A stretch of DNA of 64,000 nucleotides, from assembly GCF_048403405.1 (NCBI RefSeq), contig NZ_CP183129.1; one strand, 5' to 3'. This DNA comes from Escherichia coli. Lineage in GTDB: Bacteria; Pseudomonadota; Gammaproteobacteria; Enterobacterales; Enterobacteriaceae. Under the pieces are notes generated by a model. It was given only the letters and a program-made list of their open reading frames with translations. It was not told the DNA's origin and ran no database searches. Positions 4,812 through 59,777 of the stretch are shown here, piece after piece (within the stretch, counting starts at the first letter, position 1; every line of letters starts with the position of its first letter). The translations under genes and the position numbers were made by a program.

Positions 4812-7054
<2,243 letters not shown>

Positions 7055-54327: not shown

Positions 54328-55524
54328 ATGCTAAAAGTGTTATTGCTCTTTGTTTTGCTGATTGCGGGGATAGTGGTTGGCCCGATGATTGCCGGTCATC
54401 AGGGTTACGTGCTGATCCAGACCGACAACTACAATATCGAAACCAGCGTCACTGGCCTGGCGATTATTTTGATTCTGGCGATGGTAGTGCTGTTTGCCAT
54501 TGAGTGGCTACTGCGGCGGATCTTCCGCACAGGCGCACACACCCGTGGGTGGTTTGTCGGACGTAAGCGTCGCCGTGCCCGTAAGCAGACCGAGCAGGCG
54601 CTGCTGAAACTAGCGGAAGGCGATTATCAGCAAGTTGAAAAGCTGATGGCGAAAAATGCCGATCACGCTGAACAACCGGTGGTGAACTATCTACTGGCTG
54701 CCGAAGCCGCGCAACAACGTGGTGATGAAGCACGCGCCAACCAACATCTGGAACGTGCAGCGGAGCTGGCCGGCAACGACACCATTCCGGTAGAAATCAC
54801 CCGTGTACGTCTTCAACTGGCCCGTAATGAAAACCATGCTGCACGCCACGGCGTGGATAAGCTGCTGGAAGTTACGCCACGCCATCCGGAAGTATTACGT
54901 CTGGCGGAACAGGCGTATATCCGCACAGGTGCATGGAGTTCGCTGCTGGATATCATCCCATCAATGGCGAAAGCCCACGTTGGCGATGAAGAACATCGTG
55001 CAATGCTGGAACAACAGGCATGGATTGGCCTGATGGATCAGGCGCGCGCCGATGACGGTAGCGAAGGTTTGCGAAACTGGTGGAAAAACCAAAGCCGGAA
55101 AACGCGTCATCAGGTGGCGTTACAGGTGGCAATGGCGGAACATCTTATTGAATGTGACGATCATGATACTGCTCAGCAAATTATCATCGACGGCCTGAAA
55201 CGCCAGTATGATGATCGTCTGCTGCTGCCGATCCCGCGTCTGAAAACCAATAACCCGGAACAGCTGGAAAAAGTGCTACGCCAGCAAATCAAAAACGTCG
55301 GTGATCGCCCGCTGTTGTGGAGCACATTGGGTCAGTCACTGATGAAGCACGGTGAATGGCAGGAAGCATCGCTCGCCTTCCGCGCGGCGCTGAAACAACG
55401 TCCGGACGCCTACGATTACGCATGGCTCGCCGACGCGCTGGACAGACTGCACAAACCAGAAGAAGCTGCAGCGATGCGCCGCGACGGTTTGATGTTAACG
55501 TTGCAGAACAACCCGCCACAGTAG
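54328..55524 (+). CDS. hemY: HemY (TPR-containing membrane protein)
   Basis: 398-aa ORF with two N-terminal TM segments followed by TPR-like repeats; last gene of hemCDXY. Confidence 0.9.
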   Translation: MLKVLLLFVLLIAGIVVGPMIAGHQGYVLIQTDNYNIETSVTGLAIILILAMVVLFAIEWLLRRIFRTGAHTRGWFVGRKRRRARKQTEQALLKLAEGDYQQVEKLMAKNADHAEQPVVNYLLAAEAAQQRGDEARANQHLERAAELAGNDTIPVEITRVRLQLARNENHAARHGVDKLLEVTPRHPEVLRLAEQAYIRTGAWSSLLDIIPSMAKAHVGDEEHRAMLEQQAWIGLMDQARADDGSEGLRNWWKNQSRKTRHQVALQVAMAEHLIECDDHDTAQQIIIDGLKRQYDDRLLLPIPRLKTNNPEQLEKVLRQQIKNVGDRPLLWSTLGQSLMKHGEWQEASLAFRAALKQRPDAYDYAWLADALDRLHKPEEAAAMRRDGLMLTLQNNPPQ

Positions 55525-55534
55525 TTCTTTCTCA

Positions 55535-55568
55535 CCCGGAGGCAAGCACCTCCGGGACCTTTCTGATA
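55535..55568 (+). terminator. Rho-independent terminator of the hemCDXY operon
   Basis: CCCGGAGG-CAAGCA-CCTCCGGG hairpin followed by ACCTTTCTGAT, 10 nt after the hemY stop. Confidence 0.5.
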
Positions 55569-55571
55569 CAT

Positions 55572-55777
55572 AAAAAAACGCCTGCTCTTATTACGGAGCA
55601 GGCGTTAAAACAGGTCTGTATGACAACAAGTGGGTGCTTCACTCAACGTTGTGTCCATGGTGTCTGATGAGGCATAAGCGACATCTGTCAGTGGACGATA
55701 AGCACCGTAAACGGCTCTGCGTCATTCCGGAGTTTATGAGGCACTAAGGCGAACATAAGAGATGGAATGAGCATCTA
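55572..55777 (-). ncRNA. glmZ: GlmZ small regulatory RNA (activator of glmS translation), including its own terminator
   Basis: The reverse complement of 55572-55777 reads GTAGATGCTCATTCCATCTCTTATGTTCGCC ... ACAGACCTGTTTTAACGCCTGCTCCGTAATAAGAGCAGGCGTTTTTTT, which matches GlmZ as I remember it, in the expected hemY-aslA intergenic position and ending in a hairpin plus U-tract. Confidence 0.8.
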
Positions 55778-56202
55778 CTCGTTTATTATGCCACAGAGAA
55801 CCGGGAAATAACATCCCTTAACACTTTTTATGAGATAATTCTGTAATCCTCTTTGCTTCCTGAGTAATAACTTCCTGAGTGAATATTTCTCCTGCGCACG
55901 ATTCTACACATATATATAATGAATAATAAAAGTCATTCAATTAATAACATATATATTAATTGCCGTTAAAACTAAAAACAGCATCAATAATCAACGCGAT
56001 ATAACATCACCGCCTTACATATCACCTGCGCCAGAGGTAGGATTGAAAACGCTCTCCTGATTTTCCAATTCATTATCTGGATAAATAAATAATTTATTTT
56101 CATCACTATTATTTATGCAATCATCCTGTCAGGGAGAGGGATCTCAATTATCAATGCTTAATTACGTCAACATTTTGACGACATGAAACCGGAGCATTTT
56201 GC

Positions 56203-57858
56203 ATGGAATTTTCGTTTTCACCCAAACTTCTTGTTGTGGCTGTCGCCGCCGCTCTTCCACTCATGGCCAACGCAGCAGATACCCCGTCAACCGCCACCGC
56301 ACGCAAAGGCTTTGCCGGATACGATCACCCAAACCAGTATCTGGTTAAACCGGCGACCACTATTGCCGACAACATGATGCCGGTGATGCAGCATCCTGCA
56401 CAAGACAAAGAAACCCAGCAGAAGCTGGCAGAACTTGAGAAAAAAACCGGTAAGAAACCGAACGTGGTTGTTTTCTTGCTGGATGATGTGGGCTGGATGG
56501 ATGTTGGCTTTAACGGCGGCGGCGTGGCGGTGGGTAATCCTACACCAGATATCGACGCCGTTGCCAGCCAGGGGCTGATTTTAACTTCGGCGTATTCTCA
56601 ACCGAGTTCTTCCCCAACCCGCGCCACGATTCTTACCGGACAATACTCCATCCACCACGGCATTCTGATGCCGCCAATGTACGGGCAACCGGGCGGTCTG
56701 CAAGGGTTAACCACTCTGCCGCAGTTGCTGCACGATCAGGGCTACGTCACTCAGGCCATCGGGAAATGGCATATGGGGGAAAACAAAGAGTCGCAGCCGC
56801 AGAACGTTGGCTTTGATGATTTCCGCGGCTTTAACTCGGTATCCGATATGTATACCGAATGGCGTGATGTTCACGTCAACCCGGAAGTCGCCCTGAGCCC
56901 GGATCGTTCTGAATACATCCAAAAACTGCCGTTCAGCAAAGATGACGTTCATGCCGTGCGCGGCGGTGAACAGGAAGCCATTGCCGACATTACGCCGAAA
57001 TATATGGAAGACCTGGATCAACGCTGGATGGAATATGGCGTTAAGTTCCTCGACAAGATGGCGAAGAGCGATAAGCCTTTCTTCCTCTACTACGGCACTC
57101 GCGGCTGTCACTTCGATAACTACCCAAATGCGAAATATGCGGGTAGCTCTCCGGCGCGCACCTCTTACGGCGACTGCATGGTGGAGATGAACGATATCTT
57201 CGCCAATCTGTATAAAGCACTGGAGAAAAACGGTCAGCTTGATAACACGCTGATTGTGTTCACCTCTGATAACGGTCCGGAAGCCGAAGTTCCGCCACAC
57301 GGTCGCACGCCGTTCCGCGGTGCGAAAGGTTCTACATGGGAAGGCGGCGTTCGTGTGCCAACCTTCGTTTACTGGAAAGGCATGATCCAACCGCGTAAAT
57401 CTGACGGCATTGTCGATCTGGCGGATCTCTTCCCTACGGCGCTGGATCTGGCGGGGCATCCTGGGGCGAAAGTAGCGAATTTAGTACCGAAAACCACCTT
57501 TATCGATGGTGTGGACCAGACATCTTTCTTCCTGGGAACAAATGGTCAGTCTAACCGTAAGGCCGAGCACTACTTCCTCAACGGTAAACTTTCTGCTGTG
57601 CGTATGGATGAGTTCAAGTATCACGTCCTGATCCAGCAACCGTACGCGTATACCCAGAGCGGGTATCAGGGTGGATTCACCGGCACAGTAATGCAAACGG
57701 CGGGATCGTCGGTGTTTAACCTGTACACCGATCCGCAGGAAAGCGACTCCATCGGCGTGCGCCATATCCCAATGGGTGTACCGCTACAGACCGAAATGCA
57801 CGCGTATATGGAGATCCTGAAAAAATATCCACCACGCGCGCAGATTAAATCTGATTAA
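56203..57858 (+). CDS. aslA: Arylsulfatase-family protein AslA (periplasmic)
   Basis: 551-aa ORF with signal peptide ([26 protein letters not shown]) and sulfatase fold; the active-site motif reads [12 protein letters not shown] (Ser-type). Confidence 0.9.
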
Positions 57859-59341: not shown

Positions 59342-59418
59342 TGGTCGGCGAGAGAGGATTCGAACCTCCGACCCACTGGTCCCAAACCAGTTGCGCTACC
59401 AAGCTGCGCTACTCGCCG
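59342..59418 (-). tRNA. proM: tRNA-Pro (anticodon TGG)
   Basis: Reverse complement reads CGGCGAGTAGCGCAGCTTGGTAGCGCAACTGGTTTGGGACCAGTGGGTCGGAGGTTCGAATCCTCTCTCGCCGACCA; cloverleaf with a TGG anticodon loop. Confidence 0.9.
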
Positions 59419-59460
59419 AAATACTGCTTTTTGAATTTTTAGTTCAATTCTTTAAAGTCG

Positions 59461-59546
59461 TGGTGCGAGGGGGGGACTTGAACCCCCACGTCCGTAAGGA
59501 CACTAACACCTGAAGCTAGCGCGTCTACCAATTCCGCCACCTTCGC
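59461..59546 (-). tRNA. leuT: tRNA-Leu (anticodon CAG), long variable arm
   Basis: Reverse complement reads GCGAAGGTGGCGGAATTGGTAGACGCGCTAGCTTCAGGTGTTAGTGTCCTTACGGACGTGGGGGTTCAAGTCCCCCCCTCGCACCA. Confidence 0.9.
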
Positions 59547-59566
59547 ATTGTCACAACTTCTAATAA

Positions 59567-59642
59567 TGGGGTGGCTAATGGGATTCGAACCCACGACAAC
59601 TGGAATCACAATCCAGGGCTCTACCAACTGAGCTATAGCCAC
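59567..59642 (-). tRNA. hisR: tRNA-His (anticodon GTG)
   Basis: Reverse complement reads GTGGCTATAGCTCAGTTGGTAGAGCCCTGGATTGTGATTCCAGTTGTCGTGGGTTCGAATCCCATTAGCCACCCCA. Confidence 0.9.
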
Positions 59643-59700
59643 CACTACAAATCTTGTTACGCGGTATTACTACCACCGCAGCTCAAGCGCCGGGACTAAA

Positions 59701-59777
<77 letters not shown>

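Follow-up and report, generated by a model that had tools for sequence, protein, structure and literature searches.

The window, which is the whole 64,000-nucleotide stretch of Escherichia coli DNA analysed here, carries a small RNA gene on the minus strand between two plus-strand protein genes, hemY and aslA. With a probability of about 98%, it is glmZ, which encodes GlmZ, an Hfq-dependent small RNA of 207 nt. The gene converges on hemY, 47 nt separating its 3' end (55572) from the stop codon of hemY (55524), and diverges from aslA, with 424 nt between the glmZ +1 and the aslA start. Convergence of glmZ with the hemCDXY cluster has been reported (PMC3045617). A GC-rich hairpin lying directly past hemY is probably the hemCDXY terminator.

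54328..55524, (+): hemY, convergent with glmZ; open reading frame and RefSeq annotation of an identical genome
55535..55556, (+): GC-rich 8-bp hairpin CCCGGAGG-CAAGCA-CCTCCGGG, directly past the hemY stop; not part of glmZ
55572..55778, (-): glmZ primary transcript, 207 nt; RNA nt n = window 55779 - n
56203..57858, (+): aslA, divergent from glmZ; open reading frame and RefSeq annotation of an identical genome

An Rfam 15 scan of all 64 kb of the window, with gathering thresholds as the cut-off, returned six matches, among them a full-length match of 55778..55572 (-) to RF00083 (GlmZ_SraJ), covering model positions 1-214 of 214 and scoring 218.4 bits against a gathering threshold of 60 (3.6x; E = 3.4e-56). 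Pairwise alignment with glmZ of K-12 MG1655 (b4456; 3986432-3986603, between aslA and hemY on the opposite strand) revealed 207/207 identical bases, all differences from K-12 falling outside the RNA: at -23, at -49, farther upstream, and at three bases between the terminator and hemY. The annotated 5' end of K-12 glmZ (3986432) and the start of the Rfam model both map to 55778, yielding a transcript that opens with GTAGATGCTCATTCC on the minus strand and has the published primary length of 207 nt (PMC4152352); the processed form measures about 151-155 nt (PMC4152352; PMC4737144). The glmZ feature in the K-12 GenBank/RefSeq record measures 172 nt, stopping directly ahead of the terminator hairpin and hence 35 nt too short.

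The sequence-only reading had described a 206-nt minus-strand GlmZ unit at 55572-55777 between hemY and aslA, and had named a covariance-model scan and an alignment to E. coli glmZ as checks. Both checks came out in its favour, the latter without any divergence, and the placement between the two plus-strand genes is correct; only the 5' end changes, to 55778, which makes the transcript 207 nt long. Its term "antisense-oriented" applies in the sense of opposite orientation only, as glmZ overlaps neither hemY nor aslA. Since the gene is identical to that of K-12 and sits in its usual place, that reading was right and the finding is an ordinary one: glmZ here is a known gene at its canonical locus.

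The value of the finding lies in annotation. ORF-based tracks and PGAP routinely omit glmZ: as the sequence-only reading had remarked, the ORF track of the window does not capture the gene, and most of 30 sampled PGAP-annotated RefSeq E. coli genomes have no feature under the glmZ match. A plus-strand ORF of 103 codons (55356-55667) that overlaps both the hemY 3' end and GlmZ found no support. A "hypothetical protein" recorded under the match was likewise discarded as an ORF over glmZ, its overlap amounting, in the one case checked, to the last 2 nt only. In E. coli 1532WA (NZ_CM149886.1), a 591-nt "hypothetical protein" CDS (WP_001260227.1) adjoins glmZ downstream, where the window has hemY. 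The presence of this CDS there in some E. coli genomes indicates that the glmZ-hemY spacer is polymorphic.

The Rfam scan also touched features elsewhere in the window. A full-length match to the Erse small RNA (RF02757) lies at 6449-6700 (-), with 317.9 bits against a gathering threshold of 138 (E = 4e-96); its last bases, UAAAUGA, make an overlap with the end of a coding region probable. Just past aslB, four tRNA genes occupy 59345-59777 (-), with matches at 59345-59418, 59464-59546, 59570-59642 and 59704-59777; the identical genome annotates tRNA-Pro, tRNA-Leu and tRNA-His there, the fourth gene lying outside the stretch compared.

Conservation and fold of the RNA

Of 5426 complete E. coli genomes, 5424 match the 207-nt GlmZ query at 99% identity or more. 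A longer 801-nt query (55300-56100) is present in 5424 of the 5426 as well, with 5180 in the 95-99% identity band; at least 15 of the genomes listed, from varied sources and including CFSAN061763, match the segment at 100%, and 225 match it at 99% or more. The flanks of glmZ thus vary by 1-5% across E. coli genomes, and the RNA, at least 99% identical everywhere it was found, is far more constrained than they are.

Folding of the single GlmZ sequence gives -60.8 kcal/mol (z = -3.3 against dinucleotide shuffles). Scanning species-representative genomes with AACGTTGAGTGANGCNCC recovered at least 120 stretches, of which, among the matches listed, about 93 are enterobacterial glmZ genes and the others chance matches in unrelated phyla. 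After removal of sequences more than 93% alike, 47 homologues and the window sequence were aligned (n = 48). The Rfam-derived structure laid on this alignment leaves 88.5% of cells paired, against 35-40% when partners are slid by 1-3 columns, and 11 of its pairs change on both sides, with 99 such cells against 36 ± 5 in shuffles; these pair counts have the apex of stem-loop 1 (SL1) out of register, with two pairs unpaired in all 48 sequences, and RNAalifold was preferred for SL1. The RNAalifold consensus of the 48 sequences contains 12 compensatory pairs and resolves three stem-loops, SL1 (nt 6-61), SL2 (nt 73-146) and SL3 (nt 173-202), an architecture known from structure probing (PMC4737144).

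55718..55773, (-): stem-loop 1, RNA nt 6-61; RNAalifold consensus, with which the single-sequence fold agrees
55633..55706, (-): stem-loop 2 (central), RNA nt 73-146; basal helix 100% paired in the 48 sequences
55607..55632, (-): single-stranded region CACUUGUUGUCAUACAGACCUGUUUU, RNA nt 147-172, 26 nt, between SL2 and SL3
55572..55606, (-): stem-loop 3, the intrinsic terminator with its U tail; 11-bp stem 55606..55577, U tail 55576..55572

Compensatory changes are distributed over all three stem-loops. In SL1, alignment pairs 13-70 and 14-69 exchange UA for CG in 9 sequences and CG for UA in 2; in the SL2 basal helix, one pair exchanges UA for CG in 20 of the 48. SL2 is the published binding site of RapZ and directs RNase E cleavage (PMC4737144). 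The single-stranded region, in which RNAalifold places a 3-bp mini-hairpin, separates SL2 from the terminator.

The terminator is composed of two arms, AACGCCTGCTC and GAGCAGGCGTT, that form a perfect 11-bp stem closed by an 8-nt loop and followed by TTTTT, exactly at the coordinates (55577-55606) that the sequence-only reading had assigned to it. Compensatory changes affect eight of the 11 stem pairs among the 48 homologues, and the RNAalifold consensus includes a terminator pair with GC exchanged for AU in 20 sequences. The U run extends over 7 residues, 2 of them within the stem, and the 3' oligo(U) is a published Hfq-binding determinant (PMC4737144). The plus-strand flank of the hairpin reads AAAACAGG, so the U-tract serves a minus-strand transcript alone, which bears out the remark that an A-tract lies on one side only.

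Pairing with the glmS leader

The published single-stranded region of GlmZ measures 26 nt and holds both the glmS pairing and RNase E sites (PMC4737144). Duplex computation between this region and the K-12 glmU-glmS intergenic RNA yields two blocks of 8 and 7 bp with a combined energy of -19.2 kcal/mol, equal to the 15 paired nucleotides stated for GlmZ and glmS (PMC4152352).

55622..55629, (-): first pairing block UUGUUGUC, RNA nt 150-157; computed duplex with the glmS leader
55610..55616, (-): second pairing block GACCUGU, RNA nt 163-169; computed duplex with the glmS leader

The motif AGACCTG is near-invariant across the 48 homologues. On the leader side, the partner ACAGGUUGACCGACAACG sits about -40 to -22 from the glmS AUG. 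Co-folding the 3' part of GlmZ with the leader opens the hairpin UUGACCGA/UCGGAAUCAA and leaves the stretch from -20 to the AUG, the Shine-Dalgarno region, unpaired. Against the 191-nt leader, 112 of 2000 shuffles of the single-stranded region reach an energy as good, a weak advantage over chance that is not strong evidence taken alone; support for the pairing comes instead from where the duplex lies and from the published experiments. A run of RNAduplex with full-length GlmZ against the whole glmU-glmS region was discarded, as it produced a meaningless end-to-end duplex that 436 of 500 shuffles equalled.

The target site in the glmS leader is identical in K-12 and CFSAN061763, and 5424 of 5426 E. 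coli genomes contain the leader. Near-identical genomes indicate that glmS, glmY, rapZ, hfq and rne, which lie outside the window, are probably present in this strain.

RNase E cuts GlmZ between nt 153/154 and 155/156 (PMC4737144). Mapped onto the window, these cuts fall at 55626/55625 and 55624/55623, inside the first pairing block, which accounts for the loss of GlmZ activity on processing.

Because the RNA is identical, the published mechanism can be carried over to the gene in the window. Next to the identity, boundaries, conserved structure, complementarity, promoter type and synteny established here, the dependence on Hfq, RapZ, RNase E and GlmY and the effect on glmS would follow from the literature on the identical sequence. 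That literature describes Hfq-aided GlmZ-glmS pairing, cleavage by RapZ and RNase E, sequestration of RapZ by GlmY, and the release by RNase E, from the glmUS transcript, of the glmS mRNA that GlmZ activates (PMC4152352, PMC4737144, PMC7073468). Made as a minus-strand transcript, GlmZ would start at a constitutive sigma-70 promoter (extended -10, weak -35), end at its own intrinsic terminator, fold into three stem-loops and, with Hfq, pair to the glmS leader, opening an inhibitory hairpin that hides the glmS ribosome-binding site. The glmS message would then be translated and stabilised, raising the level of glucosamine-6-phosphate synthase. When glucosamine-6-phosphate is plentiful, RapZ would bind SL2 and present GlmZ to RNase E, whose cuts in the pairing site (nt 153/154 and 155/156) would leave an inactive RNA; when it is scarce, the decoy GlmY would sequester RapZ, and GlmZ would survive. 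The function named in the sequence-only reading, post-transcriptional regulation of glmS, is published for this exact sequence (PMC4152352, PMC4737144), as activation of glmS translation and stability in vivo (PMC4152352), and the recomputed complementarity to the glmS leader agrees with it.

GlmZ is a textbook small RNA under regulated decay. Through it the cell adjusts how much GlmS is present, the enzyme that opens amino-sugar synthesis for the cell envelope, and GlmZ also adds to intrinsic resistance against GlmS inhibitors (PMC4908143).

A further duplex concerns GlmY. In K-12 GlmY, the 12-nt single-stranded region GCCUUAUUCCAU is able to anneal to AUGGGAUGAGG of the glmS leader through an uninterrupted run of 11 pairs that includes 2 G-U (-15.1 kcal/mol), an energy equalled by just 3 of 3000 shuffled 12-mers. 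This site lies in the glmU-glmS spacer, at about -139 from the glmS AUG and about 10 nt past the glmU stop. The literature describes GlmY as being without complementarity to glmS, and the duplex could be chance.

The promoter and rival readings of the locus

Upstream of the glmZ +1, the sequence reads ATGTTA-N18-CATAAT-N6-G, with a TG one base ahead of the -10 hexamer, and the -10 region is identical to that of K-12. CATAAT as the -10 hexamer is our own reading and ATGTTA at 55809..55814 is the probable counterpart of the published -35.

55785..55793, (-): putative sigma-70 extended -10, TGgCATAAT; CATAAT 55790..55785 (-12 to -7), TGn with TG 55793..55792
55809..55814, (-): probable weak -35, ATGTTA; 3/6 matches to TTGACA, 18-bp spacer

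These elements fit the E. coli glmZ promoter as published, a single constitutive sigma-70 promoter that binds no GlrR and for which sequence upstream of -40 is dispensable; mutation of the -10 abolished expression of a glmZ'-lacZ fusion, and mutation of the -35, with its three consensus-matching bases, drastically cuts expression (PMC3045617). A simple promoter scan did not flag the glmZ promoter, the -35 being too weak. The aslA-glmZ spacer (55779-56202) contains no GlrR site (TGTC-N10-GACA, at most 1 mismatch), and no sigma-54 element (TGGC..GG-N10-GC) lies upstream of glmZ in the window. A whole-window scan for TGGCAC-N5-TTGCW at 3 mismatches gave 314 matches, fewer than in shuffles, and is uninformative. 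The glmZ promoter of the window would accordingly classify, by its sequence, as the Escherichia type (group III, Gopel et al. 2011), served by sigma-70 only.

Farther upstream, two tandem 15-nt direct repeats, CTTCCTGAGTAATAA and CTTCCTGAGTGAATA, occupy 55856-55885, so that ACTCAGGAAG occurs twice on the glmZ strand at about -78 to -107. They are kept in K-12, in a region dispensable for the glmZ promoter (PMC3045617), and may concern aslA.

Two substitutions relative to K-12 lie upstream of +1, G for A at -23, in the spacer, and A for C at -49; these may affect promoter strength, and they are what would favour regarding glmZ here as a conserved but inactive relic, unexpressed owing to its promoter differences. 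That is extremely unlikely. The core promoter (-10, TG extension and -35) is intact, -23 falls in the spacer and -49 in the dispensable region (PMC3045617), and the RNA body has no substitution at all. Identity of the 801-nt segment at 100% in at least 15 listed genomes and at 99% or more in 225 is also unlike decay. The chance that the hairpin and U-tract act mainly as the hemCDXY terminator, the upstream 170 nt being unrelated intergenic sequence, is smaller still. The hairpin does begin only 53 nt past the hemY stop; against this, hemY has a GC-rich hairpin of its own at 55535-55556, the U-tract lies on the minus strand only (AAAACAGG flanking the hairpin on the plus strand), and the covariance model fits the 207 nt in full, not the hairpin alone, all of this stretch being invariant in E. 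coli.

Comparably negligible is the prospect that the element encodes the paralogous decoy RNA GlmY and not the base-pairing GlmZ. GlmY is homologous to GlmZ and shares the SL1/SL2/SL3 layout, and cmscan indeed gave one lower-scoring overlapping match of the same clan, which was suppressed; the GlmZ model is, however, the top-scoring clan member at the site. The sequence is identical to K-12 glmZ and not to K-12 glmY, which sits beside glrK at 2.69 Mb, its single-stranded region is 26 nt long and holds the glmS site, against 12 nt in GlmY (PMC4737144), and hemY-aslA is the glmZ locus. The analysis found no evidence contradicting the identification as GlmZ.

Comparison with GlmY and with glmZ of other Enterobacterales

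GlmY (Tke1/SroF; Rfam GlmY_tke1, clan CL00011) is a homologue of GlmZ that likewise folds into three stem-loops and binds RapZ by way of SL2. It differs in a 12-nt single-stranded region without a glmS pairing site and in adjoining glrK, whereas the element in the window has a 26-nt region with the site and lies between hemY and aslA, which places it outside GlmY.

In Salmonella, Yersinia and most other Enterobacterales, glmZ shares with the window the RNA body, the structure and the convergent hemY. Of 47 enterobacterial loci, 39 have a convergent HemY homologue on the downstream side of glmZ, and the remainder end too early. The upstream side differs: glmZ of Salmonella, Yersinia and most Enterobacterales has a sigma-54 promoter (TGGCAC..GG-N10-GC), which the window and other Escherichia lack; exact GlrR sites (TGTC-N10-GACA), one to three per locus, are found in the 300 nt upstream of many non-Escherichia loci, whereas the window, like other Escherichia, has none there. 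Among the matches listed, 77 other loci extend far enough upstream for the comparison, and 68 of them have the sigma-54 element at the expected distance.

Sorting these 77 loci by their upstream neighbour reveals the element in 68 of 71 without an upstream AslA homologue and in 0 of 6 with aslA upstream (Fisher p = 3.5e-7, with loci of shared ancestry counted as independent and about four genera involved). Among the matches listed, an upstream AslA homologue occurs only in Escherichia, Superficieibacter, Kluyvera and Pseudocitrobacter. Both the sigma-70-only Escherichia glmZ promoter and the variable upstream region were already reported by Gopel et al. (PMC3045617). Tentatively, and at somewhat under even odds, the rearrangement that placed aslA beside glmZ may have brought the switch from a GlrR/sigma-54 promoter to an unregulated sigma-70 one; the comparison suggests that it would have replaced everything upstream of about -15. 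The link to aslA, if true, is a small addition to Gopel et al. and the sole point not already in print.

Within the alignment, glmZ of Providencia, Moellerella, Morganella and Proteus (8 rows) is without the UGUU of the first pairing block and has a longer AU-rich stretch ahead of the terminator; glmS pairing in these genera may be organised differently. An E. coli-type glmZ with the Escherichia promoter also turned up on NZ_VLXZ01000176.1, a 279-nt contig of coverage 1.47 in an Alkalicoccobacillus porphyridii assembly; the contig almost certainly stems from E. coli DNA contaminating this Bacillales assembly.

The closest known system is GlmZ of K-12 itself (SraJ/RyiA, RF00083, b4456). The window shares with it all 207 nt along with the 5' end and terminator, the fold into three stem-loops, a 26-nt single-stranded region that contains the 15-nt glmS pairing site, the core of the sigma-70-only promoter and the locus, and departs from it in the substitutions at -23 and -49 and in three more between the terminator and the hemY stop. 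The known picture of the GlmZ system is unchanged by the window.
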